Notes: generated by a model not told the origin, from the letters alone. DNA of 64,000 nt from Candidatus Enterousia sp. (GCA_045613925.1 JAZLBV010000014.1:36155-100154), one strand, 5' to 3'. Positions 8,297 through 53,284 are shown, counted from the first letter of the stretch. Numbers and translations are program-made.

Positions 8297-8320
8297 ATTT
8301 ATCTCCTACAAAATAATATG

Positions 8321-35446: not shown

Positions 35447-37690
35447 TTATTTCAACACAGCATCTCTAAAATAATCCTGTTCTTTAACAAGATATGCACA
35501 AAAATATGCACACGCAGATCTGCACGAATAACCAGAAAAATACGAATCAAACACCCAATTCGCCCCACCATCTTTTTTACAATAACAGGCCACCTTGGCA
35601 TCATTTGCAGGTTTCACACGTCCATTTTCCACCCACGAATCATACGAATTCTGAATTTGCGTCTGAACCGTTGCACCTGGTGTAGAACCGTGTGGCATAT
35701 TATCAGGACGCACAGCACTACACACGGAAATTCCTTTGACATTTCCACCAGAAAAATACGTCATCCAATCCCCAGCTGTCAACGAATTACAATCTGCCGA
35801 ACTTATTTCACCACGAACAAAACCATCAATAAAATTATAGCAATACCCTACACCATCACCATAATCTTTATCAGATTCAAATCTTGTTTGCTTTACACCA
35901 CCAGTCGCAGTATATCCCACCGTCTCAGGCGTTGGTTCAACATACACAGATTTTCCAGACGAATCAACAACCTTGCCCAACATAGCCGCGGCATTTTTCT
36001 CACCGAAACTTTCAACCAACTTTTTGGTTATCACGTCCCCGTCTTCTGAATCAGCAAACAAAGTCGTCGCATCTTTACCCTTTAAATGTGTCAAATCTTT
36101 CTTGCAATCTATACCATCAAGATTAAGCACACTTGGCGTAAACTTTGAAAAGTTTAATTTATCATAATTTTTAGTTCCAGCATCTTTTAAACATTGTTTC
36201 AGTTCTTTCAAAGCAGCATCTTCATTTTTCTTAGAATCTTTGTCATCTTTGGCACCTTTTATCCATTCGCCCAATTTACCATTTATCAAACTATTGCCAA
36301 CAATACCAACCGCTGCACCTGCCCCCAACGCAATCGCACCATATTTAACACGATTGGCACTTGCTTCTTGGTCAGACGTAATAAGCGCCTGATCTGATTC
36401 ACTGCCTGTCTTGGCACGATAAAGCGATGCATAATTTCCACCTGTTATACCAACATTTTCATCATCATAAAGCCCCATATCGGCTTTATCTAAAATAACT
36501 TCACTTTCTATACCAGGCTTCATCCCCAATGATTCTTTGCGTTCTTTCAAACTATCAGCCAACGCAAAATATTCATTACGATATTTCATAATCTTTGCAT
36601 CATTCCCACCTGGCAATTCAATTTCTTCCACACCTGCCTTAACAGATTTTCCATCCGCATACGAACAACGCATAGTTGCCATATACGCAGTCATATCACG
36701 ATCCGCCGCCGCATCTGCTTTTTGTTCAGTCAACCCCTGCGCCAACTGCATTGCGCCAATCCCAGTTGCTGCGGTTGTAGCCGCCGTCAAAGTCCGATTC
36801 GCCAACGATTGTTCAGTTTCTTTGGCATCATCCCATGCAGATTTTTTCTCAGCCAACGCCGCCGCCTTTTCTTCGTCGGTGCGTTCTTTCGGTTTTGGTT
36901 TCGGCTGTGGTTCAGATTTAGATTCGGGTTTCGTTTCTGGTTTTTCTTCTGGTTTTTTCCCGGGTTTTTCTTCTGTTTTTGTTTTCTTTTTCACACACTT
37001 ACCATCTTTATATTCTTTGTTTTCATCATTACAAACACACTCGTTCTTTTCTTCATCCCAGGTTGCCTGCTTTCTTATTTTCCAACACGCATCCTGTAAT
37101 GCCGATAAATCTGAATCCTCACACTTTTGTATCCCAGAATTCCACACCATTGAATCAGGACAATCACAGGTATTCTTTTCTTCGTTCCACTGACCTTTTT
37201 TGCCATTATATTCTGTCTCGCAAAATTGTTTATTAAGATTTACAGGTTGCTTCATTTCGAATTTTTCTGGCTCTACACCTGATTCTATTTTCCCAGGCTT
37301 TCTCATAACAGGTTTTGCATTATCCGCACCACTTGCAACAACCCCAACATCTTCAAGCGAAACAGAGCCTGGGGTTAACTTAATAGTATTACCAGCACCA
37401 GCAACTAAAGAAATTGTCTGTGTATCATACCCCACAAAACTTACCTTAGCTTGATTTCCATAAAGATCACAATTGAAAACCCCACCTTTTATGGTATAGC
37501 AGCCATTACTAGAATCTCCTGCCCACGAAACATTGACTCCTTCAAGTGGCTGATTATTTGCTGCATCAAGAACAACACCACTATACCTTTTAGTAGCGAG
37601 ACTTCCACTATTAAACGGCTGAACACCGTACGAAACGCACGGCATCAACACAAACAACCCGATAAAAATCTTTAAGATTTTATTTTTCAT
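35447..37690 (-). CDS. Large modular secreted protein: CarboxypepD_reg-like N-domain, Cys-rich repeats, PE/PK linker, shared 183-aa module, Cys-rich C-domain
   Basis: Start ATG 37690 with GGAG RBS; signal peptide; SGVVLDAANNQPLEGVNV...SFVGYDTQ; module paralogous to 50983-53208. Confidence 0.8.
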   Translation of the reverse strand: MKNKILKIFIGLFVLMPCVSYGVQPFNSGSLATKRYSGVVLDAANNQPLEGVNVSWAGDSSNGCYTIKGGVFNCDLYGNQAKVSFVGYDTQTISLVAGAGNTIKLTPGSVSLEDVGVVASGADNAKPVMRKPGKIESGVEPEKFEMKQPVNLNKQFCETEYNGKKGQWNEEKNTCDCPDSMVWNSGIQKCEDSDLSALQDACWKIRKQATWDEEKNECVCNDENKEYKDGKCVKKKTKTEEKPGKKPEEKPETKPESKSEPQPKPKPKERTDEEKAAALAEKKSAWDDAKETEQSLANRTLTAATTAATGIGAMQLAQGLTEQKADAAADRDMTAYMATMRCSYADGKSVKAGVEEIELPGGNDAKIMKYRNEYFALADSLKERKESLGMKPGIESEVILDKADMGLYDDENVGITGGNYASLYRAKTGSESDQALITSDQEASANRVKYGAIALGAGAAVGIVGNSLINGKLGEWIKGAKDDKDSKKNEDAALKELKQCLKDAGTKNYDKLNFSKFTPSVLNLDGIDCKKDLTHLKGKDATTLFADSEDGDVITKKLVESFGEKNAAAMLGKVVDSSGKSVYVEPTPETVGYTATGGVKQTRFESDKDYGDGVGYCYNFIDGFVRGEISSADCNSLTAGDWMTYFSGGNVKGISVCSAVRPDNMPHGSTPGATVQTQIQNSYDSWVENGRVKPANDAKVACYCKKDGGANWVFDSYFSGYSCRSACAYFCAYLVKEQDYFRDAVLK

Positions 37691-37716
37691 CTCTCTCCGA
37701 CACATACAAACAAAAA

Positions 37717-37932
37717 CTATTTGGCCTTTTTGGCAACAGTTTTCTTCTTTGGCGTACTTTTCTTTGTTGCAACAGATTTTTGCGACGGTTTTTCTTTGAT
37801 TTCTTTTTTGAAAACCTTTACACCATCGGCGATATTTTTCATCATAGTTGGAATTTTGGCACTGCCAAACAAAATAACCACCAATACAACGATTAAAATA
37901 ATTTCCCAAAAACCCCATCTCATATTTGCCAC
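37717..37932 (-). CDS. tatA: Twin-arginine translocase TatA
   Basis: WEIILIVVLVVILFGSAKIP...GVKVFKKEI. Confidence 0.9.
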   Translation of the reverse strand: MANMRWGFWEIILIVVLVVILFGSAKIPTMMKNIADGVKVFKKEIKEKPSQKSVATKKSTPKKKTVAKKAK

Positions 37933-37935
37933 CTT

Positions 37936-38730
37936 TTATTTAGTAACATAACAATCCAATCCGTCGGATTTAGCATTACGGCAGAAACCATTTGCATCAT
38001 TTGCAGAATTAAATGCAATACGCAAACGATACGTAGTCTTGCCCTTAACTTCTGCCGCCAAAATCACGAATTGTTTTCCATTAAATAAATTTTGGTGCGC
38101 ACTGCGGATTTTGCTTTCTGCTGCCTGAGCTAACTCACGCGTGCTGTACGATCCGAATTGAACATAAACACTGCCATTAATTGCGGTCGCCACAGACGTT
38201 TTCGGCTTATTTATTGGCGCAGTAATTTTCTTTGGCTGTTGCGGCTTTGCAACTGGTTTTGGCGCAACTGCCGGTTTATCAGGATTAAAGACAACCTCTT
38301 TTCTATCTTCTATAACACGAATCGGCTTACCATCAGATTCCACAGGTTTCACATCAACCGGTTTTGGCATTGGTTGCGGATTAGCCACTGGTTGTGGCAC
38401 AGGCGCAGGCTGCTGAACCGGCATTTGTTGTGGTACAGGTGCACCTTCGACTGGTTTTGGTGGAACATTTAAATTATCAACTGGTGCAGGAGGAACATCA
38501 GCAACGACCACTGGTGCATCTAAATCAACACTGACCGTCGTTCCCGAATCGCCCCCGACACGCGCAATTATAATCCACGTAGCCAACGCAATAACGGCAA
38601 TTCCCAATCCCATCAACAACCAGGGTCTTTTAGGACGCGGCGCAGAAAAAGGCGTTGCCTCTGGCAAAACGTCAGCTTCGTTGTTATCTTCTAAATCTAA
38701 TAAATCTAAGTTTTCTTCTTGGTCGGTCAT
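37936..38730 (-). CDS. SPOR-domain protein (FtsN-like)
   Basis: TM helix, Pro-rich linker, VQFGSY...YRLRI...ANGFC..AK SPOR domain. Confidence 0.85.
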   Translation of the reverse strand: MTDQEENLDLLDLEDNNEADVLPEATPFSAPRPKRPWLLMGLGIAVIALATWIIIARVGGDSGTTVSVDLDAPVVVADVPPAPVDNLNVPPKPVEGAPVPQQMPVQQPAPVPQPVANPQPMPKPVDVKPVESDGKPIRVIEDRKEVVFNPDKPAVAPKPVAKPQQPKKITAPINKPKTSVATAINGSVYVQFGSYSTRELAQAAESKIRSAHQNLFNGKQFVILAAEVKGKTTYRLRIAFNSANDANGFCRNAKSDGLDCYVTK

Positions 38731-38809
38731 AATATCCCCCCGTATTGTTTTATATGTTATGGGTATATTATATCATAAAAAAACGATATAACCAAGAAAT
38801 CGTTTAAAA

Positions 38810-38950
38810 TTATTTTGGCATATTTCCAAAATTAGGTGGCACTATCAATTTATGATTAGATTCCACGATTGGTTCATTTTCACATTTACAACAACCAGCA
38901 ACAAAACCAACCATCGACACAATCGCCAATAACATTGCTATTTTTTTCAT
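38810..38950 (-). CDS. Small lipoprotein (DUF3035-like)
   Basis: AAGGA RBS; lipobox VAGC; LIVPPNF motif. Confidence 0.6.
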   Translation of the reverse strand: MKKIAMLLAIVSMVGFVAGCCKCENEPIVESNHKLIVPPNFGNMPK

Positions 38951-39009
38951 CTTTCTTTTCCTTGCTTTACAAATCAATGAATGGGGGCGCAAACCGCCCC
39001 CACACATTT

Positions 39010-40743
39010 TTACATAGGCATTTTAACTGAATCAACCATATACGCAATAAAATCAGACAAAGACTTCACATCTTGACCTTCTTTGCCCAAATGGCGCAAC
39101 GTAACAGTTTTATCGTTCATTTCTTTTTCACCAACCACAGCAATAATTGGTGTTTTTGCCAAAGATAAATCACGCACTTTGTAATTAACCTTTTCATCAC
39201 GCAAATCAGCACGCGCAATCACACCGGCATCACGTAATTGTTCCACCACATCATTCGCGTAATCTTTGTACTTTTCAGATACTGGCACAACAACCACTGG
39301 TTCTGGTGATAACCACAAAGGCAATGCCCCACCTGTTGATTCTAACAACACACCCATAAAGCGCTCTATAGAACCTAACATAGCACGATGCAACATAACT
39401 GGACGATGCTTTTCACCATCTTCACCGATATAGGACAAATCAAAACGTTCTGGTAAATTCATATCCAATTGCACAGTTCCACACTGCCACACACGCCCCA
39501 TAGAATCACGCAGATAATTATCTATCTTTGGTCCATAAAACGCAGCGTCATTTTCTGCAATTTCATATTCAATTCCATTTTTATCTAATGCGTTTTTAAG
39601 CGCCCCTTCGGCCTTATCCCAAACCTCGTCAGAACCGATACGGAATTCAGACAATGGACGCGTTGCCAATTTCATAGTAATTTTTTCAAAACCAAATTTA
39701 CCATAAATATCTTTGATAAAGCGCAAAATTTTTACGACTTCGCTTTCCAATTGGTCTTCCGTGCAGAATATATGCGCATCGTCTTGGGTAAATTCACGAA
39801 CACGCATCAAACCAGCCAAAGCGCCTGCTGCTTCATAACGATTAACCTTGCCAAATTCGGCCAAATACAACGGCAAATCTTTATAAGATTTTAAACCCTG
39901 ACCAAAAACCAACATTCCACCAGGGCAAGACATAGGTTTTACACAAAAAACTTTACCATCTTGTGTTGTTCCAGAATAATTGTGTGCACCGTATTTTGCC
40001 CAGTGTCCAGATTTTTCCCACAAACATCTATCCATCACAGATGGCGTAGAAATTTCCTGATAACCTGCCCTTTCTTGGCGCATACGAATATATTCAATCA
40101 ACTTACGATAAATTTTAAAACCTTTATCGTGCCAAAACACTGCACCCGGCGCATATTCAGGTTCAAAATGGAACAAATCCATATCTTTACCAAGTTTACG
40201 ATTATCGCGTTGTGCAGCTTCTTCTTGTTGTTTCAAGAACTCAGCCAATTTTTCACCGTCTTCAAACGCATCAACATAAATACGTTGCAACATTTTGTTT
40301 TTGCTGTCGCCTTTCCAGTATGCACCTGCAACGTTTCTGATTTTAAAACCGTCCCTTGGCAAATCTTTAGATGATTCAACATGTGGCCCACGGCACAAAT
40401 CTGTAAAATCACGGAAAGTGTAAATTGACAACACTTCACCATTTGCATCATATTCATTTAACCATTCCATTTTATATGGTTGATTTTTGAATATTTCTTT
40501 GGCTTCATCTAACGAGATTTCGCGTCTTTCAAAACGGCCATCAGATTTAATCAAAGATTTCATTTCTTTTTCAATTGCTGCGAAATCTTCTTCGCTGAAT
40601 CTATGTTCAGTATCAAAATCATAATAAAAACCATTTTCAATCGCCGGACCACCTGCGAATTTTACATCAGGATATAATTTTTGTACCGCTGCCGCCATTA
40701 CGTGTGCCAACGAATGACGAATTAATTCTATTGGATAAGACAT
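39010..40743 (-). CDS. thrS: Threonine--tRNA ligase (lacks the N-terminal TGS domain)
   Basis: RHSLAH, DLCRGPHV, KPMSCP, RVREFTQDDAH, AFYGPK. Confidence 0.97.
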   Translation of the reverse strand: MSYPIELIRHSLAHVMAAAVQKLYPDVKFAGGPAIENGFYYDFDTEHRFSEEDFAAIEKEMKSLIKSDGRFERREISLDEAKEIFKNQPYKMEWLNEYDANGEVLSIYTFRDFTDLCRGPHVESSKDLPRDGFKIRNVAGAYWKGDSKNKMLQRIYVDAFEDGEKLAEFLKQQEEAAQRDNRKLGKDMDLFHFEPEYAPGAVFWHDKGFKIYRKLIEYIRMRQERAGYQEISTPSVMDRCLWEKSGHWAKYGAHNYSGTTQDGKVFCVKPMSCPGGMLVFGQGLKSYKDLPLYLAEFGKVNRYEAAGALAGLMRVREFTQDDAHIFCTEDQLESEVVKILRFIKDIYGKFGFEKITMKLATRPLSEFRIGSDEVWDKAEGALKNALDKNGIEYEIAENDAAFYGPKIDNYLRDSMGRVWQCGTVQLDMNLPERFDLSYIGEDGEKHRPVMLHRAMLGSIERFMGVLLESTGGALPLWLSPEPVVVVPVSEKYKDYANDVVEQLRDAGVIARADLRDEKVNYKVRDLSLAKTPIIAVVGEKEMNDKTVTLRHLGKEGQDVKSLSDFIAYMVDSVKMPM

Positions 40744-40834
40744 AATAAACTACCTTTACTTTATTATTTCATTTTAATTTTTTAATTGTTTGCTTGATTA
40801 TAATACGCACGATATTTTTGTGCAAATGAAAAAC

Positions 40835-40894
40835 CTATACCCCCAAAGGGGTTGTAGTCAAAGTTGTATTCAAAATAAATAATCTATATAACAT
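40835..40894 (-). CDS. Thr-rich leader (attenuator) peptide of thrS
   Basis: MLYRLFILNTTLTTTPLGV*, 5 Thr in 6 codons; overlaps ACCCC-UUUG-GGGGU hairpin followed by U tract. Confidence 0.75.
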   Translation of the reverse strand: MLYRLFILNTTLTTTPLGV

Positions 40895-40901
40895 AGCCAC
40901 T

Positions 40902-40930
40902 ATAATATTACCAAAAAACACAAAAGTCAA
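40902..40930 (-). promoter_or_regulatory. sigma70 promoter for the thrS leader
   Basis: TTGACT-17 nt-TATTAT, 7 nt before the leader ATG. Confidence 0.65.
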
Positions 40931-40966
40931 AAAAAATCCGTCGAAATCAAACAACGACGGATTTTT
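40929..40966 (-). terminator. Terminator after the TPR gene
   Basis: AAAAATCCGTCG/CGACGGATTTTT hairpin. Confidence 0.7.
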
Positions 40967-40975
40967 ATATTTTAA

Positions 40976-41947
40976 CTACTGCAATTCATTAATCAGATTT
41001 TGAATTCTGTTAATACTGTCTTCATCATTTATTGCCACAGCAATTGCAAACGCAGACTCCAAATCACTTTTAGCAGCATCCAAATTATCCAACTTTAAAT
41101 TCAAAGCCGCAGACTTTTCAAAATACCCCATTGCACTGCTAGACTGCGCTTCGCGTTCTTCCTGACTTGGCAGCCCCTGAATTTGTTCAGAGATAACCCG
41201 CACAGCAGACGTATAATCATTTATTGCATCCGCATATTGACCAACTGCAGTATACGCTTCGGCACGTTCCGCATACACAGATGCAGAAACACTGCCTTCT
41301 GCACGCGCCAAAGAATTTGTATAATCCGCAATCGCGCCTTCCCAATTTTTTAACCACAAATTCAATTGACCACGTTTTGCATACAAATCGCGCATAGACA
41401 AAACATCCGCCGGCTTCATAGATTGTGCAGCCAACGCATTATTTATATCAGCCAAAGCCGCTTCATAATTCTCAAGACGTGTATTTAACAAAGAACGATC
41501 ATAGAAAGCAACCGCATTCATACCATCAGCTTCTATTGCAGAGTTAAAATCTTCCAACGCCTTTTGATAATTTCCAATATGCATATTTGCTTCACCACGC
41601 AAAGCATAAAGATTCGAACTGGCATTAGAATCAATCGCAGCATCCAAATCAACAAGAGCTGCCTCAATATCCCCAGAAATTAATTTTTCACGCGCCGCAT
41701 CAATATAATCACTGGGAGCACTCAACATTTCTTCACTGATAACAACACGACGTGCGGATGGGTGTAAAAATTCGTGGCTGCGTCCCAAAATATAAAACGT
41801 CGCAGCAATAAAAAACAAAATTATAAACCAATATACATATATAGACCACGACCACACAGACATAGAATTGCATACCGGTTCTTTTTCAACAACCTTTGTT
41901 GCAACCGCTGAATTACGTGTTTTTCTGGTGTTTTTGGACTTTTTCAT
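40976..41947 (-). CDS. Membrane-anchored tetratricopeptide repeat protein
   Basis: TM helix followed by TPR repeats (YALRGEA, AIADYT, YAERAEAY). Confidence 0.85.
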   Translation of the reverse strand: MKKSKNTRKTRNSAVATKVVEKEPVCNSMSVWSWSIYVYWFIILFFIAATFYILGRSHEFLHPSARRVVISEEMLSAPSDYIDAAREKLISGDIEAALVDLDAAIDSNASSNLYALRGEANMHIGNYQKALEDFNSAIEADGMNAVAFYDRSLLNTRLENYEAALADINNALAAQSMKPADVLSMRDLYAKRGQLNLWLKNWEGAIADYTNSLARAEGSVSASVYAERAEAYTAVGQYADAINDYTSAVRVISEQIQGLPSQEEREAQSSSAMGYFEKSAALNLKLDNLDAAKSDLESAFAIAVAINDEDSINRIQNLINELQ

Positions 41948-41966
41948 AAGTTCACTCCCTTCCCTG

Positions 41967-42677
41967 TTATTTTGATGTTAGCAAATTTTTTAAAACCAGG
42001 TCAATTGTTTTCTTATCTAATTCAACAATTTTTCCAACACTTAAATTTTTTAACTCTATGCCACCATAAGAAATTCGATGCAACGCAACAACTGGCGAAC
42101 CAATATGTTTCAAAGTAATACGAATTTCATTCTTCTTACCTTCAATAACAGTAATACGCAAATGTTTTTCATCCATAACATCTATTGTCATAGGTCGATA
42201 TTTTATACCATCAACAACAACGCCGCGCCGTAAAATATTTAATCCAGATTCACTATATTTATTCACAGTCGCAATATATGTTCGTGGAATATGATTTTCG
42301 GGCAAAGACATTTTACGCGCAAAATCACCATTATTAGTCAACAATAACAAACCAGTAGTTTTAAAATCCAACCGACCAATATATTTCAAATTTCTATATT
42401 TTTTATCTAACACATCATATATAGTTTTTCTATGTTGTGGATCATAAGTGGTGGTCATAGTATCTACAGGCTTATTAAACATATATAATTTGATTTCATT
42501 TTCTTTCTTAATCTGCTTTCCACGCACGCATACTGTATCATCTTCTTCAACAAAAAACACAGGCGTATCAACAACCACGCCATTAACAGACACTACACCT
42601 GATTCAATAAGTGCCTCAGCACCACGGCGCGATGCCACACCTGAATCTGCCAAAAATTTAGACAATCGAACACTCAT
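41967..42677 (-). CDS. rRNA pseudouridine synthase (RsuA/RluB family)
   Basis: S4 domain RLSKFLADSGVASRR, GRLD, GLLLLTN, EGKKNEIR. Confidence 0.92.
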   Translation of the reverse strand: MSVRLSKFLADSGVASRRGAEALIESGVVSVNGVVVDTPVFFVEEDDTVCVRGKQIKKENEIKLYMFNKPVDTMTTTYDPQHRKTIYDVLDKKYRNLKYIGRLDFKTTGLLLLTNNGDFARKMSLPENHIPRTYIATVNKYSESGLNILRRGVVVDGIKYRPMTIDVMDEKHLRITVIEGKKNEIRITLKHIGSPVVALHRISYGGIELKNLSVGKIVELDKKTIDLVLKNLLTSK

Positions 42678-43333: not shown

Positions 43334-43386
43334 TTTTTTAATCTTTCAAGTATAAAAAACATTCTTTTTGTGATATAATAACAACT

Positions 43387-45648
43387 ATGGCAATGAAATT
43401 CAATATTTTCTCTGGCTCTGATACCGGCAAAGGTTTAAAAATCTTTGAATCCAGCGCATACAAAGAACACGAACGCATCCCAATGGCGCGAAAATTCTGG
43501 GAAATCCGCTGGAACGTGATTATTTGGCTATTATCAGCATTGGCATTTGGACTTTCGTTTGCCATTGAACACATATGGCGGTATGGCTGGGGTCCGGCCA
43601 GTGAACAATGGGTTAGCATATATATTAAAAATATGATTATGACGGGTGGTTTATCTGTGGTGGCTGAAGTTCCTTTTTGGTTATCCCGCACATTACAACA
43701 CCCTGATTACGCATCAATTACACCATTATTACCTGTAATCGCATATTATTTCTTGTCTGATTCGGATTTCAAATCAGAATTCAACCCGTATAGCAAGGAC
43801 AGATTTGATGAAAAAACTTCGCGCAAAGCAACCGAAGACGACATCAAAAAGATGGGAACGAACTTCAAAAACAAAGAAGGATTATTCAATGGATTTATGA
43901 TGGTGTTGGGTTATTTCAAACTAAAAGGCAAATCCACACCTCTTATGTTTGACGAATCTTTGTCTGCATTGTGTTTGGCACCTCCGGGAACCGGTAAATC
44001 TGCGGGGGTCGTGTTGCCAACTATTTGGGATTGTAATGACGTTTCGATGATTATAAACGACCCAAAACCAGAATTGAAACAAATAACATCTGGATATCGT
44101 TCCACGGTTGGACCAGTATTTATTATGAATTGGGCGGGCCAGGATGAACCAGAACGTGGTATATATTATCCATCGTGGAATCCATTATCCCCAGATCACG
44201 TTCCATATAATCCCGAACAGCGCGATTTGTATATTGATGCAATATGCAAAGTTTTGGTCCAAGATAGTGTCCAAGATCCCCACTGGGCAAACACCGCCCG
44301 CGCAGGATTGGCCGGTCTTATCAATTTTATGGTGTCTAAGGTGGAACGTGCCAAAGCTGACGATTATTTCTATGCACGTATAAACAACGGTTCTTTTAAC
44401 AGCGACGACGCATCAATATTAGGCGATTATTATTTGTCTATGATGAGTGATCCTAACGCATACGCAGCATATTCGCTTTTACAACGTGGTGAATTAAACA
44501 CAATGAATTATGTCCACGTTGGAACCTGGACAAACATCCCAGATGCGTGGCACGGCAAAGAAGCATCTCTTTCTATGATTCTTGATTGGATTACCGCAAG
44601 CCAGGTTAACATTGCAGAACAAATGGAAGAACGTCGGCGCCAGGGCGATCAAATGACTATGATGGCAGACCCAATGAAAGATTTACTATTGAATGCCGTT
44701 GAAGAAGCACGCCGTTTTGCATACGCACATCGTTCTGTTGCAGAATTAACCCAACTTGCAAATACCCCTGAAAAAGAACGTGGTTCCATATTATCAACTA
44801 TGCTCGAAGGATTGGCTATATTCCGCAATTCTGCGGTCCGTAACCGCACCAGCCATTCTGATTTTCACTTTGCAGACCTGCGCGGCTTAAAAGACCCACG
44901 TGACGGCAAAGTCAAACCAGTCAGCGTCTATTTATCTGTGAACCTGGTTGATGCCCAGGCTGTTAATCCTATCACAGCTATATTTATTGAATTGATGTCC
45001 AGCTATTTGTTGGCTCACACTCCGGATAGCCTTATTGATGGCCAGCGTGTCGGCCCATATCCGGTATTGTTCGTATTGGACGAAATGCCAAAAATGCAAA
45101 AATTGGATGCAGTTATCCAAGGACCAGACCTTGGTCGTGGATGCAAAGTATCTTATTTAATTGTTGGTCAAGACATCCACCAGATTCAGGAAAAATATGG
45201 TGCGGATGCTGCTGCTACTATTATATCAACCACTGCTGCAAAAATTGTTTTACGCCAAAACGATCCAGAAACCGCAAAAAGATTTTCTGAAATGATTGGT
45301 ATGAAAAAGACCAAGAAAGTTGAAAAAGACAAAGACGGCAAAGAAGTCGAAACACCAAAAGAAGAACCGCTTTATTCCGAAATGGATATTATGAAACTAG
45401 GCGAAGGAAAACAACTTGTCATTTATCAGGGTTGGTATCATCGTCCAATAGAAGCAGACCAAGAACGTTGGTTCCTTAATAAAACACCAATCCAGAAAAA
45501 ATTGTATGAAAAAGCCATGATGGGTGAATCTGCGCCATTACCAGAATTTTTAATTCCATCTCATCACGCTATTATGGGATACGAAGGTGTTCCGAAAATT
45601 TACAATCCTCAAACCAAAGAAATAAAAATATTGGAACCTTTGCATTAA
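43387..45648 (+). CDS. Type IV secretion coupling protein, VirD4/TraG family
   Basis: N-terminal TMs, Walker A APPGTGKS, INDPKPE, WNPL, FVLDEM, Q-DIHQIQEKYG. Confidence 0.88.
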   Translation: MAMKFNIFSGSDTGKGLKIFESSAYKEHERIPMARKFWEIRWNVIIWLLSALAFGLSFAIEHIWRYGWGPASEQWVSIYIKNMIMTGGLSVVAEVPFWLSRTLQHPDYASITPLLPVIAYYFLSDSDFKSEFNPYSKDRFDEKTSRKATEDDIKKMGTNFKNKEGLFNGFMMVLGYFKLKGKSTPLMFDESLSALCLAPPGTGKSAGVVLPTIWDCNDVSMIINDPKPELKQITSGYRSTVGPVFIMNWAGQDEPERGIYYPSWNPLSPDHVPYNPEQRDLYIDAICKVLVQDSVQDPHWANTARAGLAGLINFMVSKVERAKADDYFYARINNGSFNSDDASILGDYYLSMMSDPNAYAAYSLLQRGELNTMNYVHVGTWTNIPDAWHGKEASLSMILDWITASQVNIAEQMEERRRQGDQMTMMADPMKDLLLNAVEEARRFAYAHRSVAELTQLANTPEKERGSILSTMLEGLAIFRNSAVRNRTSHSDFHFADLRGLKDPRDGKVKPVSVYLSVNLVDAQAVNPITAIFIELMSSYLLAHTPDSLIDGQRVGPYPVLFVLDEMPKMQKLDAVIQGPDLGRGCKVSYLIVGQDIHQIQEKYGADAAATIISTTAAKIVLRQNDPETAKRFSEMIGMKKTKKVEKDKDGKEVETPKEEPLYSEMDIMKLGEGKQLVIYQGWYHRPIEADQERWFLNKTPIQKKLYEKAMMGESAPLPEFLIPSHHAIMGYEGVPKIYNPQTKEIKILEPLH

Positions 45649-45650
45649 TT

Positions 45651-46883
45651 ATGCGAAAAATAATTTACCTTTGTTTGTTGTTTTTATGTGGATGTGCATC
45701 AACTATGCAATCAAAGCTTGATGATATCCAACATAATTTTTCAAATGCACAATACACATCAAACATACCAGACACAGATTTTTCATCACAAAACAACCTT
45801 GATTTACTAATCACTGCAACTGCCCTATTTCACGAAAACAAATTCAAAGAATCAGACGGCGCCTTTGAAGAATTTAACAAGCGAAACATCAATGAAACTT
45901 CGTCATCTATTACGCGTGAAACCACAGGTTTACTTTTAGGTGGTGGCGTAAATTCATATAAACCATATATGATGGATTCTCTGTTTGTATCGTATTACCA
46001 GATTTGGGATTTGCTGGCATTACACGATTGGTCAAACGCCCGCGTAGTTATTAATCAATCGTATGAACGTCAAAAAAATATGTCAATTGAATATAAAAAA
46101 TTAATCGAAGAAAATAAAAATAAAATTTATGAAAATTCTGAGATATCAGAAACTATAAATAAAAACAAATCTGATTGGGCGGCTTTTTCGGACATTATGA
46201 ATCCTGCATTGATGTATCTGTCCGGCATATATTTTCTTAACGACGGCGATTTTGCAAATGCAGAAATTTATTTGAAACGCGCAAACGGTATGATGCCTGA
46301 GAATAAATTTATTAAAACAGACCTGGCCGCTGCCGAACAACATATAAAACCCAAAAATACGACCTGGATATTCATTGAATCGGGTTTTGCACCACGTCTA
46401 CGCGAAGAAAACGCCGGCATATTTTTACCGCATATTGGTATGATATATTTTTCATTTTCTGAACCATACTTTAACCCTGCGCCGCACCAACCAACAGGTT
46501 CAGAATTATTGGCAAACATAGATAAAATGTTTCTAACCGAATATAACGAATACAGACCAAATGAAATTTTGCGTTCATATACATCAGCTGTATCAAAAGC
46601 AACACTTCAAGCGACAATGTATAATTCAGCATCAGATTCTGCACCGCTTATGGGGATTTTATCAACTATATATACAGTATCATCATCAAACACAGACGTT
46701 CGCACCTGGGCAACATTACCAAAATACATATATGTACAAAGAATAGATAACAGCAAAACAAACTTGAACGAAATAAATGTTGATGATAGTATTAAACAAG
46801 AAATTAAATCTGGTGGAAACAATTTAATATACATACGTGAACACGACCACCCAACTGACATAAAGATAATAAACTTGAAATAA
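45651..46883 (+). CDS. Lipoprotein (COG3014-like)
   Basis: Lipobox LCGC; ARVVIN, NPALMYLSGI, DVRTWATLP; upstream of lpoB. Confidence 0.7.
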   Translation: MRKIIYLCLLFLCGCASTMQSKLDDIQHNFSNAQYTSNIPDTDFSSQNNLDLLITATALFHENKFKESDGAFEEFNKRNINETSSSITRETTGLLLGGGVNSYKPYMMDSLFVSYYQIWDLLALHDWSNARVVINQSYERQKNMSIEYKKLIEENKNKIYENSEISETINKNKSDWAAFSDIMNPALMYLSGIYFLNDGDFANAEIYLKRANGMMPENKFIKTDLAAAEQHIKPKNTTWIFIESGFAPRLREENAGIFLPHIGMIYFSFSEPYFNPAPHQPTGSELLANIDKMFLTEYNEYRPNEILRSYTSAVSKATLQATMYNSASDSAPLMGILSTIYTVSSSNTDVRTWATLPKYIYVQRIDNSKTNLNEINVDDSIKQEIKSGGNNLIYIREHDHPTDIKIINLK

Positions 46884-46906
46884 AAGAACCAAAGGAGAAA
46901 AACCGT

Positions 46907-47515
46907 ATGAAAAAGATTATACCATTAACAATCTGTGTTGCACTGTGCGCCTGTGCAGAAACCCAAGTTATTGATTTAAATAATGACAAAGAAGTTTCCA
47001 CAATGCAAAACGTTATGGAATTGGAATATCGTGATTGGACAAACGCCGCAGAAAAGATGACTAAATCAATGATAAATAGTGGCGTATTAAATAAAACCCA
47101 AAAACCAGTTATCGCAATCGCAGACATAAAAAATGATACAGCCCAACGTTTTGATACTGATATACTAATCAAAAAAATCCGCACAACATTGGTAAATTCG
47201 GGAAAGGCTCAAATTGCGACAAATTACAGTGGCGAAGATTCAACATCAAATAACGTTCGTGCAAATTTACGTAATGATTCTGAATACGACCAAAAAACAA
47301 TCGCAGAACGTGGAACATTAATTGCACCAAATATGTCTTTATCCGGAAAAATGTTGCAAAGAAATTTAAAGTTGGAATCTGGTTGGTTTTCATCAGTTGA
47401 TACCCGTGTAGAATATTATTTGCAATTAACACTGACAGATTTGAAAACCGGGTTATCTGTCTGGGAAGACGAAGAACCGATTATAAAGCAAGGCGACCAC
47501 GCCCCAACCTGGTAA
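46907..47515 (+). CDS. lpoB: Penicillin-binding protein activator LpoB-like lipoprotein
   Basis: Lipobox LCAC; IKNDT, YYLQLTLTDLKTGLSVWED. Confidence 0.8.
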   Translation: MKKIIPLTICVALCACAETQVIDLNNDKEVSTMQNVMELEYRDWTNAAEKMTKSMINSGVLNKTQKPVIAIADIKNDTAQRFDTDILIKKIRTTLVNSGKAQIATNYSGEDSTSNNVRANLRNDSEYDQKTIAERGTLIAPNMSLSGKMLQRNLKLESGWFSSVDTRVEYYLQLTLTDLKTGLSVWEDEEPIIKQGDHAPTW

Positions 47516-47524
47516 TCAAAACAT

Positions 47525-47557
47525 AAAAAACGACCGGCATTCGCCGGTGTTTTTTTA
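47525..47557. terminator. Terminator between convergent genes
   Basis: ACCGGC/GCCGGT hairpin with A and T tracts. Confidence 0.7.
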
Positions 47558-48289
47558 TTTTAAAACTTCCCCATTTTTTGGATTTATCCGATTACGACCA
47601 ACAATTATAACGTTATCTTTATATACTGGTTTAACTTGTTTATCTATTTCCGTTGTCCAATAAACGTACCCATCATCAAGATTTATTGCGTATAAAACAT
47701 TATCAGTTCCAACAACAAAAGCAAAATCATCAACAATCGTAAAATCCACAGGCACAGATATATTTACACACCAAACCTTATCACCATTTGATTTATTCAA
47801 TTTGCAAAATGCATCACCCAAACCACCTGCATAAACAAATTTTCTATCAACACCTACCCGCGCAACAATATCAACCACAGACGCTCCGCCTGTCAAATTA
47901 GACGCACGAAACACATCTGCGACCCAAACAACGGTCTTGGTTTTTGGATTCACCTTTATCACTTCGCCGGTGGAAAGACCTGTATAAATAAATCCACCTT
48001 CGCAAATTGGTTTCTGATCGCTTTTGACCGAATTATCCATCGCAAAGCCGGAAAATATCTTTTCATTTTCAAACCAAATTACATTGGATGAATCCTGCCG
48101 ATATTCACAGTCTTTGTCGCCATATACATTTTTTTCACCAACCAACGTTTTCTGGATTTCTATATTTTGAACTTTGACATCAACGCTGTCAAAAATATCA
48201 TGCCGCACCCCCGGCAACACAGGATCATGCTTAGAACACCCAGAAACCACCAGCACACAACACAATAAAAATAACAATGATTTTTTCAA
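47555..48289 (-). CDS. PQQ-repeat beta-propeller lipoprotein (short BamB-like)
   Basis: Lipobox VSGC, LPGVR motif, repeated G..W propeller motifs; follows a yfgM-like gene. Confidence 0.7.
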   Translation of the reverse strand: MKKSLLFLLCCVLVVSGCSKHDPVLPGVRHDIFDSVDVKVQNIEIQKTLVGEKNVYGDKDCEYRQDSSNVIWFENEKIFSGFAMDNSVKSDQKPICEGGFIYTGLSTGEVIKVNPKTKTVVWVADVFRASNLTGGASVVDIVARVGVDRKFVYAGGLGDAFCKLNKSNGDKVWCVNISVPVDFTIVDDFAFVVGTDNVLYAINLDDGYVYWTTEIDKQVKPVYKDNVIIVGRNRINPKNGEVLK

Positions 48290-48299
48290 AAAAGCATCC

Positions 48300-48953
48300 T
48301 TATTTTAACATTTGCGCGTGTGCCAACACACTACTTGGCGCATCAGAATCTTTGATAATTACATCTAAAATCTTATCTGCAACATCCTTATCACCAGCCG
48401 ACAAATATTTTTCAGCAACCATCAACCGCGCAGTATAATAAAACGGAGATTTTTTAGTATTCATATCTGATAAATACTTTTCAAATTCTGTTGCATCCAT
48501 TTTATCACCATTAATAGTTGCCAAGTGCAATTTAGCCAAATCTTTGAAATCACGTGTATGACCATTTTGTGCCAAATCTTCCAATTTTTTAATATCATTA
48601 TCAATTAAATAGGATTGAAAAAGTGCCAAATCTGCCATCGCACCATTTGAATTTCTGGATAAATTCGCTAATGCCACAGCATCAGTATTGTTCAGCGCGC
48701 TTTCATACACCGTCGCCATAGCCATTTTTGCAGCATAACGTCTTTGTTTCACAAATTGAATACCACAAACAACTATCATAATCGCAACAGTCGCACCAAC
48801 AATATACCGCCAATATTTTTTCAGAAATTGTGTAGTTTTTTCATTATTTACATCTTCCCATACTTCGCGATACAGAGCATCTTCAGCATATTCTGCACGT
48901 GTTTTCTTAACCGGTTGCTTCAGATTTTTATTTCTTTCTAAGATACTTGTCAT
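48300..48953 (-). CDS. YfgM/DUF2659-like TPR membrane protein
   Basis: REVWEDV...KKYW + TM helix; position upstream of the bamB-like gene. Confidence 0.7.
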   Translation of the reverse strand: MTSILERNKNLKQPVKKTRAEYAEDALYREVWEDVNNEKTTQFLKKYWRYIVGATVAIMIVVCGIQFVKQRRYAAKMAMATVYESALNNTDAVALANLSRNSNGAMADLALFQSYLIDNDIKKLEDLAQNGHTRDFKDLAKLHLATINGDKMDATEFEKYLSDMNTKKSPFYYTARLMVAEKYLSAGDKDVADKILDVIIKDSDAPSSVLAHAQMLK

Positions 48954-49007
48954 AATAAACTTCTCCTGTCTTGATAATTTCTATTTTATTGCTATACTAT
49001 AAAAGTT

Positions 49008-49946
49008 ATGAAAAAGCAAATCAAGACAACTTTGCCATCAAAAACATTTATGGCCCCGACAACCGTTTTAGGGACCAACGATGATGTCAGTTTGTCTAAA
49101 TATATCGCAGAAATTCAAAAATTTCCTATTTTGACTGCCGAACAAGAATACGAATACGCAACCCAATGGGTTCAAAATCACGATAATATCGCTGCAGAAA
49201 AATTGGTGGCATCGCACCTGCGCTTGGTTGTGTCTGTTGCATATGATTTCAGAAATTATGGCCTGCCCGTGTCTGATTTAATAGCCAGTGGCAATATGGG
49301 GCTGATGCAGGCACTACAAAAATTCGATCCCGAACGTGGATTCAGATTTTCCACATACGCTATGTTTTGGATTAAAGCGGAAATTTATGAAACAATATTA
49401 AATAATTGGTCAATCGTGAAATTGGGAACATCCGCAAATCAAAAGCGTGTATTTTTCAACCTTTCACGTGCCAAACGCGCATTGGGCATAATGGATAACG
49501 CACTTTCGGATACCCAAACAAAACAAATCGCAGAATATCTATCTGTTCCTGAATCTGACGTAGAACACGTTGCAACCCGTATGTCTGCACGCGATGTTTC
49601 TTTGAACGCACCGCTTAACAGTACCGATTCGGATGCCAAGGATATTTTATCAAACCTGGCCGATACAAAAACAGACATAGAATCGGGCATTGAACAATTG
49701 GAATTTAAACGCCGTGGTTATGAATTATTACGTAAACATCTTGCTGCATTACCTGAACGCGACCGCGAAATATTGATTGCACGACGTTTGTCTGACCCAG
49801 TTGCAACATTGGAAACTTTATCACAAAAACACGGCATATCACGTGAACGCATCCGTCAAATAGAAGAACGTGCATACAATAAACTGCGCGATGCAGTATT
49901 AAATGATTCATCAAATACGCCTAAATTAATTGGGGACAAAAAATGA
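49008..49946 (+). CDS. rpoH: RNA polymerase sigma factor RpoH (sigma32)
   Basis: SHLRLVV, KFDPERGFRFSTYA, RpoH-box-like QKRVFFNL, SRERIRQIE. Confidence 0.88.
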   Translation: MKKQIKTTLPSKTFMAPTTVLGTNDDVSLSKYIAEIQKFPILTAEQEYEYATQWVQNHDNIAAEKLVASHLRLVVSVAYDFRNYGLPVSDLIASGNMGLMQALQKFDPERGFRFSTYAMFWIKAEIYETILNNWSIVKLGTSANQKRVFFNLSRAKRALGIMDNALSDTQTKQIAEYLSVPESDVEHVATRMSARDVSLNAPLNSTDSDAKDILSNLADTKTDIESGIEQLEFKRRGYELLRKHLAALPERDREILIARRLSDPVATLETLSQKHGISRERIRQIEERAYNKLRDAVLNDSSNTPKLIGDKK

Positions 49947-50980
49947 AAACAAAACACATATACACATTGTTTTTACTAACAGCAATACCAAATGCATACG
50001 CATTAGACTATTCAATTGACAACTGGCACTTTAAATTAGATGCAGATGGTATGGTCGGTTTTTTAGAACCCAAAGATGATAAAACATTATTCATAGACGA
50101 TTGGGATGTCAAAGCAACAGCAACATATCATTTCAACAACACACAACGCATTGGCGCGGTATATTCCATAGACGCCGATTGCGTAGAAGACGACGAATAC
50201 ATACACGATGCCTTTATTTTATTCGAAGACCGCAATATCGGACGTGCAGAATTCGGACTGACCCACTCTATTGCGCGAAAAATGGGATTGGGATTGCCAG
50301 ACGTTGGATATTTACGCATAAATGATAAATCGATATTTCACAAAGAATTAAAATTAAACAAAGTCCTTATCTCTGATACAGCTGCAACCACAGGCCACGA
50401 ACAATTACGATTAAACCTGGCAACCACATCTACGGATTACGGACAATATGGTGTTTCAGTCTCTGGATTGGGTGATGATTATAATTATGCGGTGGATTTT
50501 GCTGTAAAACTAAAACAACCAACTGGTAAATTAAAGGCAGCTTATTCATTGGGTTTATCATATATGAACAAACCAGAAAATTATACAGAAAACACATATT
50601 CACCAATCGTAACTGCAGATTGGCGTACCCAGGTTGCATTGGGAATTAATCTGCAATACAACAGTTTTATCTGGGGAACATCTGCCCGTATGATTTACGA
50701 CCATAACCCAATACATAAAACCGCAGACGGTTTCGTAGCCGGCACAGGGGTAAGTTATGATTTATTACAATCCAGTATATCTTTGAATTATCTTTTCTCT
50801 GATACAAACGTGTGGAATCATCACGATTATAACGGACAGAAAATAAACAATGGCGATTATATACATACTGTCTTGGCTTCGTTCAGATATAAATACACAG
50901 AACAAACAGGCGTGTTTATGTCATTAGGTCTAACCGATACAACACCATTTTTCGCGGTCGGATTAAAGTCAGGATTTTAA
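49943..50980 (+). CDS. Porin-like outer-membrane protein
   Basis: Signal peptide, GRAEFG motif, amphipathic strands, terminal Phe. Confidence 0.6.
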   Translation: MKTKHIYTLFLLTAIPNAYALDYSIDNWHFKLDADGMVGFLEPKDDKTLFIDDWDVKATATYHFNNTQRIGAVYSIDADCVEDDEYIHDAFILFEDRNIGRAEFGLTHSIARKMGLGLPDVGYLRINDKSIFHKELKLNKVLISDTAATTGHEQLRLNLATTSTDYGQYGVSVSGLGDDYNYAVDFAVKLKQPTGKLKAAYSLGLSYMNKPENYTENTYSPIVTADWRTQVALGINLQYNSFIWGTSARMIYDHNPIHKTADGFVAGTGVSYDLLQSSISLNYLFSDTNVWNHHDYNGQKINNGDYIHTVLASFRYKYTEQTGVFMSLGLTDTTPFFAVGLKSGF

Positions 50981-50982
50981 AT

Positions 50983-53208
50983 TTATTTTTTAATTATCTC
51001 GTTTATTTTTTCATTGATGACACCATTTCCAATGGTATCTTTGATTGTACCAGTTTCAACCGCTTTTTCTCCGTTTATTAAATAATTTCCCCCAATGCCA
51101 ATGACGGCACCGGCACCAGCGGCAATTCCACCACCCTTTACGCGATTCTCAGACTTTTCTTTGTCCGCGGTTATCATTGCTGAATCTGTTTCACTGCCCA
51201 TCTTTGCACGATAAAGCGATGAAAAAGAGCCACCTGTTATTCCAACGTTTTCTTCATCATAAAGCCCCATATTCGCTTTGTCTAAAACAATTTCGCTTTC
51301 TATTCCGGGCTTCATACCTAAGGCTTCTTTTCTTTCTTTTAAATCGGCGGCCAAAGCAAAATATTCATTACGTAATTTCATAATTATTTCATCATTACCC
51401 CCAGGCAATTCAATTGGTTCGTCACCTGCCTTAACAGATTTTCCATCTGCATATGAACATCGCATAGTTTCTATATATGCCGTCATATCACGTTCAGCGG
51501 CGGCGTCTGCACTTTGTTCTGCCAACCCCTGTGCCAGTTCCATACCGCCAATACCCATTGCTGCGACAGTTGCCGCTGTTAACATACGATTTTCCAAAGA
51601 TTGTTCACGTGCTTTGGCTTCTTCGTATTTCTTTTTTAATTCTTCCAATCGTTCAGATTTAACCTGATGTTCAACCAATTTACCCAAAAATGATAGCAAC
51701 CCAGCATCTGATAAATCTGATACATTTGGAATTTGTTCTGCAACAGTGGCATTTAATTCATCAACCTCTGTTTCTAAATTTTCAACAACTTGTTCTATGG
51801 GAACAGGCGGAAATTCAGGAACCAAATCTTCATTATTCCCGGGATTTACAGGTGTCAACCCGGGATCTATGTCTACTGGCACCACAGGTGTTAAGCCTGG
51901 TGTTGCTGATGTTGCCGGGGTCAACCCAGGTTGGCTTGGTTGTTCTGGCGTGGTTTCCACCGGAACATTTTCCACAGGTTTAGGTTCTGTTGGTTTTGTT
52001 TCTTCTGGCTCTGTTGGGACAGAATTTGACTTTGCTACACATTTACCGTATTTAGCACCATCAACCCATTCCCATTGCTTACTTACATCAACACAGGTAC
52101 AGATTCCTTCTTGTTCATCTCCTTTCCACGTTGTTGTATATCCTGCACGACAACACGCCAAACGTTTAACCGACGCCCCCGGGTGTCTTGTTTCACAGGT
52201 GCTTTTTGGTTTTTTTGGTGGCTCCTGCGGTTTTGTATCATCCGGTTGTGGTGTTTGTGGGTCTTGTGGTTTTTGGGGTGTCGTTGGTGCCGGAAATAAT
52301 CTTTTCAAATCAGCCACAGTCCATAAAAACTGACTTGACGCAGTAATATAATCTGTGTTGGTTGCATCACTAAATTCATCGGGACCGTACGCACCATATG
52401 AACAAACACCATACACATTTTTATTATCCAAAGAAACATATCCACCACCTGAATTTCCACACCACGAATCACAAGTAGTTGCTAAAATTTTCGGATGATG
52501 CGAAGATTTCGATAAAGATGTTTGATTATTACACACAGAACTCGTTTTTGGCTCTTTATCATTTGCTAAATCCACACAATCTTCGAAAACGATTTTACAC
52601 TTACTTGCTTTTAATCTATCTTGTTCGTCTCGCAATCCTTCAATCCCACTTTCTTTCATTTTTGATGACAAAATATCAAAATATTCGCGGGCACTGTTGG
52701 CATTAATTGACTTTGATAACTTTTTGATTATTTTTAAATCATTATTGGATAAAATACGAACCCAACCCCACCCTGCATTTAAAACATTTGTACTTTGTTT
52801 TGGTGTTTTAACATTAAAAAAACTATCATTATAATACTTTGGGTCTTGGACTAAAAAAATGGCCCAATCGCCTAAATCTCCTGCAATGCCAGTATATGCA
52901 GTTTTTAATAAATCTACATCTATTAATTCCCCTTTATAATTTTTTATTACATACAATGCCCCGTTTTGTGTGCAATGTCCTGCTGATAAAATTAAATTTG
53001 GTGCAATAAACTGTGAACTACAGTTTCCCAAAACATAATAATCTTGGTCGGCAAGATACAATTCGGCAAACTTTTTATATGGCTCTGTTGCCCACATTTT
53101 TTCTGTTACATAATACCTATTATCAGAATCCCCGACCCCAGCAAATGAATTTGTGCAAAAAATAAAAAATAAACAACACAATAAAAACTTAACAAAAACT
53201 CTCAACAT
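50983..53208 (-). CDS. Secreted trypsin-like serine protease fused to Pro-rich linkers and the shared 183-aa module
   Basis: Catalytic triad motifs SAGHC, GDWAI, GNSGG; signal peptide; start ATG 53208 with GGGGGA RBS (alternative 53220). Confidence 0.85.
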   Translation of the reverse strand: MLRVFVKFLLCCLFFIFCTNSFAGVGDSDNRYYVTEKMWATEPYKKFAELYLADQDYYVLGNCSSQFIAPNLILSAGHCTQNGALYVIKNYKGELIDVDLLKTAYTGIAGDLGDWAIFLVQDPKYYNDSFFNVKTPKQSTNVLNAGWGWVRILSNNDLKIIKKLSKSINANSAREYFDILSSKMKESGIEGLRDEQDRLKASKCKIVFEDCVDLANDKEPKTSSVCNNQTSLSKSSHHPKILATTCDSWCGNSGGGYVSLDNKNVYGVCSYGAYGPDEFSDATNTDYITASSQFLWTVADLKRLFPAPTTPQKPQDPQTPQPDDTKPQEPPKKPKSTCETRHPGASVKRLACCRAGYTTTWKGDEQEGICTCVDVSKQWEWVDGAKYGKCVAKSNSVPTEPEETKPTEPKPVENVPVETTPEQPSQPGLTPATSATPGLTPVVPVDIDPGLTPVNPGNNEDLVPEFPPVPIEQVVENLETEVDELNATVAEQIPNVSDLSDAGLLSFLGKLVEHQVKSERLEELKKKYEEAKAREQSLENRMLTAATVAAMGIGGMELAQGLAEQSADAAAERDMTAYIETMRCSYADGKSVKAGDEPIELPGGNDEIIMKLRNEYFALAADLKERKEALGMKPGIESEIVLDKANMGLYDEENVGITGGSFSSLYRAKMGSETDSAMITADKEKSENRVKGGGIAAGAGAVIGIGGNYLINGEKAVETGTIKDTIGNGVINEKINEIIKK

Positions 53209-53284
53209 TGTTTCCCCCATTTTTTACCGTCTATCTAACCCGTTCCCGACACAGTGGAACCGCGGCTATTTTTGCCGGACCGAC

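Follow-up and report, generated by a model that had tools for sequence, protein, structure and literature searches.

A candidate envelope-anchoring hairpin module that joins variable exported domains in the Candidatus Enterousia lineage

Introduction

Among the closest described counterparts of the element considered here are outer-membrane proteins built around glycine-rich helices; SlyB, YfgH, OsmB and YiaD are characterized, in an excerpt of a preprint (bioRxiv 10.64898/2025.12.22.696046), as oligomerizing transmembrane glycine-zipper lipoproteins of the outer membrane. We describe a conserved module of about 185 residues that occurs in two exported proteins, P0001 and P0002, encoded in a 64,000-nucleotide stretch of a Candidatus Enterousia sp. 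genome (GCA_045613925.1, JAZLBV010000014.1:36155-100154), the whole of which we call the window. Like the outer-membrane glycine-zipper two-transmembrane (2TM) proteins, the module has Gly/Ala-rich helices that are predicted to form a hairpin, and it belongs to proteins that appear to be exported in a diderm envelope.

The source organism falls within the order Rs-D84, whose members, according to an excerpt of a published report (PMC12306168), have genomes below 1 Mb, lack most biosynthesis and probably depend on a partner cell. In what follows we present the module as a domain family that is new to the databases, confined to one lineage and combined with a variety of neighboring domains. Of the functions that could be assigned to it we tentatively favor that of a putative lineage-specific hairpin that anchors proteins in the envelope or a membrane and tethers variable exported domains, a reading to which we would give somewhat less than an even chance.

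Results

Two diverged copies of one module

Both proteins are open reading frames (ORFs) of the minus strand, a point left unmentioned by the initial annotation, which had placed them correctly; the plus-strand translation at the same positions is riddled with stops. Module copy 1 lies at 36278..36868 (-) and comprises ORF residues 351-547 of P0001 (profile match E = 1.0e-87), and copy 2 lies at 51070..51660 (-) and comprises residues 521-717 of P0002 (E = 3.8e-91). The ungapped shared segment, for which about 140 identities in 183 positions had been claimed, contains 140/185 identical residues, or 145/207 when the lead-in is included; it is recovered by BLASTP with E = 8e-81, and a global alignment gives 144/199. 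At the DNA level identity is 446/621, and matches at codon positions 1, 2 and 3 number 169, 164 and 113 of 207. Because third positions match at only 113/207, the pair is an old duplication held under purifying selection and not a recent copy. A tblastn search of the 870-kb genome, which is 95% complete, found only these two copies.

A domain family absent from the databases and confined to one lineage

Searches of Pfam and NCBIfam returned no family on the module, so that no characterized Pfam domain accounts for it. The Rieske transmembrane-helix family UCR_TM gave weak sub-threshold matches over helix 1 in 8/58 module members (best E = 0.00095), and DUF7432 was considered and set aside, as its sub-threshold match in P0118 falls upstream of the module, at residues 75-123. 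PDB sequence profiles produced only noise at E >= 0.05 (catenin and the transporter EfpA of the major facilitator superfamily), Foldseek against PDB gave nothing at E <= 0.001, and an ESM Atlas look-up yielded no usable match. With VIA-align the whole module reached a best Z of 8.5, which is within the background of helical models and is tied with rows that include generic two-helix hairpins; the head alone reached 4.7, from a low-confidence model. The literature searched on Rs-D84 and Enterousia contained no description of the family.

The module is nevertheless abundant. Of 7,999 candidates scored in a word-indexed search, 478 proteins reached E <= 0.001, and when phmmer was run exhaustively over 1.84 billion cluster representatives, 823 reached this level, 615 of them at E <= 1e-30. 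On sequence grounds we regard the module as a domain family that is new and that numbers no fewer than 823 clusters; Pfam matches none of them on the module.

The family is also sharply delimited in its distribution. When one genome per species was scanned, 232 module stretches were confirmed and 78 loci were retained, the titles of which name Candidatus Enterousia, "Alphaproteobacteria bacterium" or "uncultured proteobacterium" from animal guts, together with one short contig labelled Clostridia and one labelled Rickettsiales. A module-only profile (A2), built from 58 rows whose members are 38-71% identical to the query, matched 169/171 sampled genomes of the window's own family (f1, in order Rs-D84, the Candidatus Enterousia lineage), with 1-7 matches per genome, and all of the genomes of one genus within it (g1, 151/151). 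It matched 0/29 genomes of five sister families of the order and 0/298 genomes from about 200 other families of Alphaproteobacteria. The module is therefore restricted to, and part of the core of, one family-level lineage. In many cases the match starts only a few bases into a contig (in genomes G001, G004, G012, G016, G021 and G023), which implies that the repeated module breaks assemblies and that the copy numbers given here are minimum values.

Module sequence and predicted structure

Ten columns of the alignment are invariant across the 58 members. The module contains a single cysteine, at column C78, which is present in 58/58, and the invariant polar or aromatic residues of the head described below are M69, C78, Y110, K121, E131 and D145. 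The two Gly/Ala-rich helices that had been noticed in the window's proteins hold up across the family: helix 1, at module positions 35-57, averages about 25% Gly and 23% Ala, and helix 2, at positions 185-207 and thus some 130 residues away, 27% Gly and 21% Ala. In copy 1 these helices correspond to 36728..36796 (-) and 36278..36346 (-), with the invariant cysteine (ORF residue C418) at 36665..36667 (-); in copy 2 they correspond to 51520..51588 (-) and 51070..51138 (-), with the cysteine (residue 78 of P0003) at 51457..51459 (-). These assignments come from the module alignment, from composition and from the stripes of small residues described below, and in copy 2 also from the helices of the structural model.

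An AlphaFold2 (AF2) run on a 55-row alignment gave a predicted local distance difference test (pLDDT) score of 73.8 and a predicted template modelling (pTM) score of 0.47. The model consists of a lead-in helix (2-29), a 44-residue helix (32-75), a beta-hairpin (77-87), a helix that is its most confident element (101-123), a loop region, a short helix (155-163) and a 40-residue helix (167-206). Two solved two-helix hairpins superpose over both long helices, namely EsxA (3zbh; Z 7.8, root-mean-square deviation 3.0 over 82 residues) and CHMP4B (4abm; Z 7.6, 2.6 over 79 residues), from which it follows that the long helices pair antiparallel in the model. The module is accordingly modelled as a small head borne on two Gly/Ala-striped helices that run antiparallel as a hairpin. 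In this prediction the apolar parts, 36-57 and 186-205 (22 and 20 residues), face each other at one end of the hairpin, the polar parts, 58-75 and 167-185 (18 and 19 residues), form a stalk, and the head is at the far end; the apolar and polar parts of the two helices match in length. Small residues recur at a spacing of 3-4 along columns 39, 43, 46, 53 and 57 of helix 1 and 187, 191, 194, 198 and 201 of helix 2, where Gly, Ala or Ser accounts for 78-100% of the residues. Glycine rarely makes up about 25% of the helices of a water-soluble coiled coil but commonly does so in membrane helices.

Architecture, export signals and cargo

The module is a discrete unit that occurs exactly once per protein in 217/217 family proteins and is complete in 209. 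Its position is free: no more than 60 residues separate it from the N terminus in 18/209 and no more than 40 from the C terminus in 37/209, it is internal in the rest, and in 48/209 at least 150 residues are present on both sides of it. Five giant relatives of 1,800-2,400 residues (P0137, P0157, P0186, P0191 and P0193) carry it right after the leader. In P0180, too, it begins a few residues past the leader, and the lead-in coiled coil is missing in some members.

An N-terminal hydrophobic window with a Kyte-Doolittle (KD) value of at least 1.6 is present in 176/204 family proteins, and the family's N termini look like Sec-type leaders. The flanks are rich in cysteine (4.25% in N flanks and 2.41% in C flanks) compared with the module itself (0.52%, essentially its one invariant cysteine). 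The source genome encodes a DsbA-like protein, and Pfam profiles did not find DsbB or VKOR in it, at its completeness of 95%.

We scanned the attached domains with Pfam in 76 relatives, that is, in every second of 215 proteins within a residue limit. This revealed 16 trypsin and 14 CarboxypepD_reg domains, 2 sets of ankyrin repeats, 1 Flg_new match and 1 sub-threshold coiled-coil match, and 42 relatives had no Pfam match at all. CarboxypepD_reg-like domains and Flg_new repeats are typical passengers of displayed proteins. Among the giant relatives P0157 bears a Kdo/WaaP-type kinase-like domain (E = 1.3e-13) and P0186 has weak matches to SprT/YgjP-like metallopeptidases.

When 99 rows of a FastTree phylogeny of 209 modules were labelled by cargo in five states, 26 state changes were required, against a minimum of 4 and against 45-47 in the first five of 200 shuffles of the labels. 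Among module clades with support of at least 95, no more than 8 leaves and at least 2 labelled leaves, 12/28 mix cargo types. Moreover, in five protein pairs the modules are 87-91% identical and the N flanks are dissimilar (best BLAST E 0.15-1.1); the window's own pair, at 72% identity, is older than these. Such patterns indicate that cargo has been exchanged around the module, and they fit gene conversion between paralogues and replacement of cargo alike, the proteins being metagenome-derived. With 823 clusters, several cargo families and pairs with swapped cargo, the proposal that the module is a discrete, reusable unit on diverse cargo is borne out, and the family is far from a pair of recent copies with uniform cargo: copies are many, cargo is diverse and the window's pair is old.

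The two module genes of the window

The gene for P0001 occupies 35447..37690 (-) and encodes 747 residues followed by a stop. A longer ORF (35447-37918 (-), 823 residues) is open at this position, and its codons 1-76 are spurious, as a TatA-like gene (37717-37932 (-), 71 residues, PF02416 E = 1.9e-10), located between a SPOR-domain gene and P0001, overlaps them in another frame. Because of this overlap the true start of P0001 is Met 37690, the start originally assigned to it; the public gene call P0008 is likewise 747 residues long, begins at Met 37690 and is identical to the shortened P0001.

From its N terminus P0001 consists of a Sec-type signal peptide (MKNKIL...VSYG, 37625..37690 (-)), a CarboxypepD_reg-like domain (37346..37582 (-), ORF residues 113-191), cysteine-rich CxC repeats with a Pro/Lys/Glu-rich linker (36884..37225 (-)), the module, a second conserved stretch that we call region B (ALKELKQCLKDAG ... 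LVESFG, 35969..36226 (-)) and a C-terminal cysteine-rich domain (35450..35851 (-)). The CarboxypepD_reg-like domain matches CarbopepD_reg_2 (PF13715) with E = 5.2e-9 and 36.5 bits, above the Pfam cut-off of 32.2, and a weak similarity links the Cys repeats to the one in P0002 (E = 2e-5). Region B is absent from P0002; 110 family C flanks join one similarity component with it, and a region-B probe matches 70/217 family proteins. A probe from the C-terminal cysteine-rich domain ('cysC') matches 10/217, and neither this domain nor region B has a Pfam match.

The gene for P0002 lies at 50983..53220 (-) and encodes 745 residues followed by a stop, with an alternative start at Met 53208. A signal peptide is followed by a trypsin-like serine protease domain (52321..53103 (-)), Pro-rich linkers with one Cys repeat (51721..52308 (-)), a coiled-coil lead-in, the module and a tail of 27 residues. 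The protease motifs SAGHC, DWAIF and GNSGGG are present, and we take these to contain the catalytic His, Asp and Ser. As for the cargo initially assigned to the two proteins, the CarboxypepD-like domain is secure and the trypsin domain of P0002 falls just short of the threshold (PF00089, E = 8.5e-4, 19.6 bits versus a cut-off of 20.6); relatives that share the architecture of P0002 score 26-46 bits. The Pro-rich linkers said to join cargo to module are evident in both sequences. The further statement that cargo precedes the module is correct for both proteins and incomplete for P0001, where the module is central, with about 275 residues after it as against 27 in P0002.

Genomic context

In the related loci the module gene recurrently follows two co-directional genes, c1 and c0, being directly downstream of c1-c0 with c0 present in 33/78 and c1 in 31/78. 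This locus adjoins rplI, rpsF and an OmpA-family gene. The products of c1 (292 residues) and c0 (604 residues) each have 20 cysteines and a leader and no Pfam match. As obligatory partners of the module c0 and c1 were considered and rejected: the source genome keeps c1-c0 (contig C12, 17253-19956 (-)) with no module gene after them. The setting of P0001 (threonyl-tRNA synthetase, SPOR protein, module gene, SufS) recurs in 6/78 loci. No small, immunity-like downstream gene recurs in the 78 loci, in which only ORFs of at least 80 residues were clustered. A leader shared by the regions upstream of the two window genes was also considered and set aside: these regions align poorly, and two tRNAs are all that Rfam identifies in the window.

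Other products encoded in the window are LolA, TatC (tatC at 26426-27133), a BamB-like protein, LpoB, an outer-membrane protein (OMP) beta-barrel protein, a secretin and a VirD4-like coupling protein, and the diderm envelope set of the genome comprises LolA, the BamB-like protein, LpoB, OmpA, the OMP beta-barrel protein and the secretin. The secretin gene (PF00263, 6665-8296 (-)) adjoins one for a TcpQ-like protein (PF10671, 8321-9340 (-)), and the two look like the outer-membrane channel pair of a type IVb-pilus or type II secretion-like system. The VirD4/TraG-type coupling protein is encoded at 43387-45648 (+) (T4SS-DNA_transf, E = 2.2e-50) and is followed by a 410-residue ORF without a confident Pfam match (45651-46883 (+)). 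A 674-residue ORF at 61530-63554 (-) combines a YbeY endoribonuclease (residues 13-134) with the LNT_N and CN_hydrolase domains of apolipoprotein N-acyltransferase, and is either the product of a gene fusion or a read-through of two genes. The dnaA gene (1291-2574 (-)) is found early in the window, and the chromosomal origin region may lie close to it.

Discussion

We favor, with the reservation expressed above, an anchoring role for the module. The points that we count for it are that the module is a discrete unit, that it is core to the lineage, that its proteins appear to be exported, that its predicted geometry is that of a hairpin, that both helices bear stripes of small residues, that its position is free and that cargo has been exchanged around it. 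A plausible scenario is as follows. Two Gly/Ala-rich helices of 20-22 residues would pack tightly as an antiparallel hairpin, which would run on into a polar two-helix stalk of 18-19 residues, and the stalk would hold a head of about 90 residues with one invariant cysteine. The Sec pathway would export the proteins, and their helices would be too weakly hydrophobic to halt in the inner membrane; the hairpin would then embed either in an oligomeric bundle within the envelope or in a membrane, of which the outer membrane is the likeliest. Both ends of the hairpin would be on the same side, so that domains could be attached before it, after it or both, and this would explain why the module is found at any position with proteases, CarboxypepD_reg and ankyrin domains, Flg_new repeats and disulfide-rich rods. 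Embedding, the choice of membrane and the anchoring role itself are all deductions on our part.

Several observations weigh against this scenario. For helix 1 the median of the best 19-residue KD window is only 1.06, 0/58 members reach 1.6, and 24/58 contain 1-2 charged residues within the helix; helix 2 is marginal, with a median of 1.56 and 22/58 at or above 1.6. The strict glycine-zipper pattern is not enriched: it occurs in helix 1 of 12/58 members against a shuffle mean of 32, and the three-part motif in helix 2 of 25/58 against 32. The sole motif above shuffles is GxxxG in helix 2 (48/58; shuffle mean 39.3, maximum 47), the same motif being below shuffles in helix 1 (7/58). The glycine-zipper families Rick_17kDa_Anti (PF05433) and Gly-zipper_Omp (PF13488) matched 0/58 members even at E up to 10, and neither was found in the whole source genome at E <= 0.01 under settings at which control genomes were matched. 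A lipobox-like motif, sought with a regular expression in the first 35 residues, was found in 0/212 family proteins, and we identified no means by which the proteins would cross or enter the outer membrane. In addition, the AF2 model is of only moderate confidence as judged by its pTM, and the head folded alone (pLDDT 63.8) is unreliable. Finally, a passive anchor would not account for the six invariant residues of the head, which are suggestive of binding or catalysis.

Some of these observations would be accommodated if the module were a soluble oligomerization stalk, in which the Gly/Ala faces pack a homo-oligomeric bundle that multimerizes cargo as a fibrous scaffold, periplasmic or on the surface, with no membrane insertion. 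Helix 1 is insufficiently hydrophobic and often charged, a helical lead-in precedes the module in the model, the small residues follow a heptad-like spacing of 3-4 and not a strict glycine-zipper, and the invariant cysteine could make an inter-subunit disulfide. However, a Gly content near 25% would be out of the ordinary for a water-soluble coiled coil, the lead-in coiled coil is lacking in some members such as P0180, and no solved bundle rises above the background of helical models. We consider this explanation unlikely, and it is the one that survives best among the alternatives.

A distinctly unlikely arrangement is that of a two-pass anchor in the inner membrane, with helix 1 acting as a stop-transfer signal, helix 2 re-inserting, the head in the cytoplasm and the flanks in the periplasm. 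The distribution of cysteines would suit such a topology, the flanks being Cys-rich and the module's lone unpaired cysteine residing in a cytoplasmic loop; the members in which helix 2 reaches a KD of 1.6 and the sub-threshold UCR_TM matches over helix 1 are also consistent with it. Nevertheless, a helix that never reaches 1.6 and is often charged would make a poor stop-transfer signal, and the acidic segment after helix 1 (AEQxADxxAE) contradicts the positive-inside rule.

The anchoring hairpin that we favor could be extended into something more specific, namely a putative alpha-helical device for outer-membrane insertion and display, in which the hairpin would oligomerize into a helical assembly spanning the membrane that would carry or hold the flanking disulfide-rich domains at the cell surface and would double as a recombination handle. 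In so specific a form we regard the proposal as decidedly improbable.

Less probable again is that the module is membrane-active, a secreted hairpin that inserts into a partner or host membrane and delivers or positions the attached enzymes, as a translocation or pore module would. Pore-forming proteins typically have Gly-rich helices of marginal hydrophobicity that do not leave the soluble state before they insert, and some giant members have enzyme-like domains, such as the kinase-like domain of P0157. There is precedent in a glycine-zipper effector of the type VII secretion system that causes membrane damage, as described in an excerpt of the report concerned (PMC12955049), and the lineage is thought to be partner-cell dependent in the excerpt of PMC12306168 already mentioned. 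Yet no conserved immunity-like neighbor emerged among the clustered ORFs (at least 80 residues) of the 78 loci, no likeness in fold to known pore formers exceeds background, and the presence of at least one copy in nearly every genome, some of them single-copy, is better fitted by a housekeeping role in the envelope. A sorting or recognition tag, whose head would be read by a lineage-specific export or assembly machine that places proteins at the surface (c1-c0 or the window's secretin being candidates), is highly improbable as well. In its favor, the invariant polar head residues suggest a binding surface, module genes directly follow c1-c0 on the same strand in 31-33/78 loci and a secretin with a TcpQ-like partner is encoded at 6665-9340. 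Against it, the source genome has c1-c0 on C12 with both module genes elsewhere, and the module, unlike known sorting signals, keeps to no fixed terminus.

The module may bear on the manner in which uncultured gut bacteria of the Enterousia lineage touch their partner cells. It marks exported, Cys-rich proteins (proteases, binding domains and long rods) that would be the best candidates for a contact apparatus, and it offers an easy means of cataloguing the lineage's surface proteins. It could also serve as a tractable system in which to study how helices, and not a barrel, anchor proteins in a diderm envelope, and how domains are shuffled when genomes are reduced. If the module does serve in display, it would constitute a self-contained surface-display system and, as a recombination handle, would let obligately partner-dependent gut Alphaproteobacteria shuffle their contact proteins.

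How, then, does the module compare with known systems? It differs from the glycine-zipper families PF05433 and PF13488, in that it matches neither profile and so cannot be counted as a member of either; these profiles span 43 and 46 positions, whereas the helices of the module are separated by some 130 residues of stalk and head, with no short turn between them. Unlike the SlyB-type lipoproteins, the module proteins have no lipobox, show no enrichment of the strict zipper and carry large, variable flanking domains.

In its organization the family resembles the C-terminal sorting domain of the type IX secretion system (T9SS), the autotransporters and the S-layer homology (SLH) and LPXTG anchors, all of which join one conserved unit to many passengers behind a Sec leader. 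The T9SS domain is a beta-sandwich, however, whereas the module is predicted to be helical, and it is C-terminal in only the 37/209 proteins mentioned above. Autotransporters differ in the same way, the module being helical by prediction, and no barrel family was found by Pfam in P0001, P0002 and the 76 relatives; nor did the T9SS, SLH and LPXTG-type families match P0001, P0002, the relatives or the module members scanned.

The initial annotation had likened the module to polymorphic effector systems. As in the contact-dependent inhibition (CDI), Rhs and LXG polymorphic toxins, variable parts are combined anew with a conserved one, as the modules of 87-91% identity with unrelated neighbors attest. 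In other respects the analogy is unsupported: the module is not a fixed N-terminal delivery region (it is N-terminal in only 18/209) and its position is free, leaders of the Sec type are seen throughout, no small gene recurs downstream among the clustered ORFs of at least 80 residues in the 78 loci, and the cargo consists of proteases, binding domains and Cys-rich rods and not of C-terminal toxins with immunity genes. As an analogy only, the variant-specific surface proteins of Giardia also combine variable disulfide-rich extracellular regions with an invariant anchor in a multigene family. They differ in that the module is bacterial, bears no sequence relation to them and would comprise a hairpin plus head of about 185 residues instead of a single C-terminal helix. 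The logic of a conserved anchor with variable passengers is thus a known one; the domain that would serve it here appears, from its sequence, to be new.

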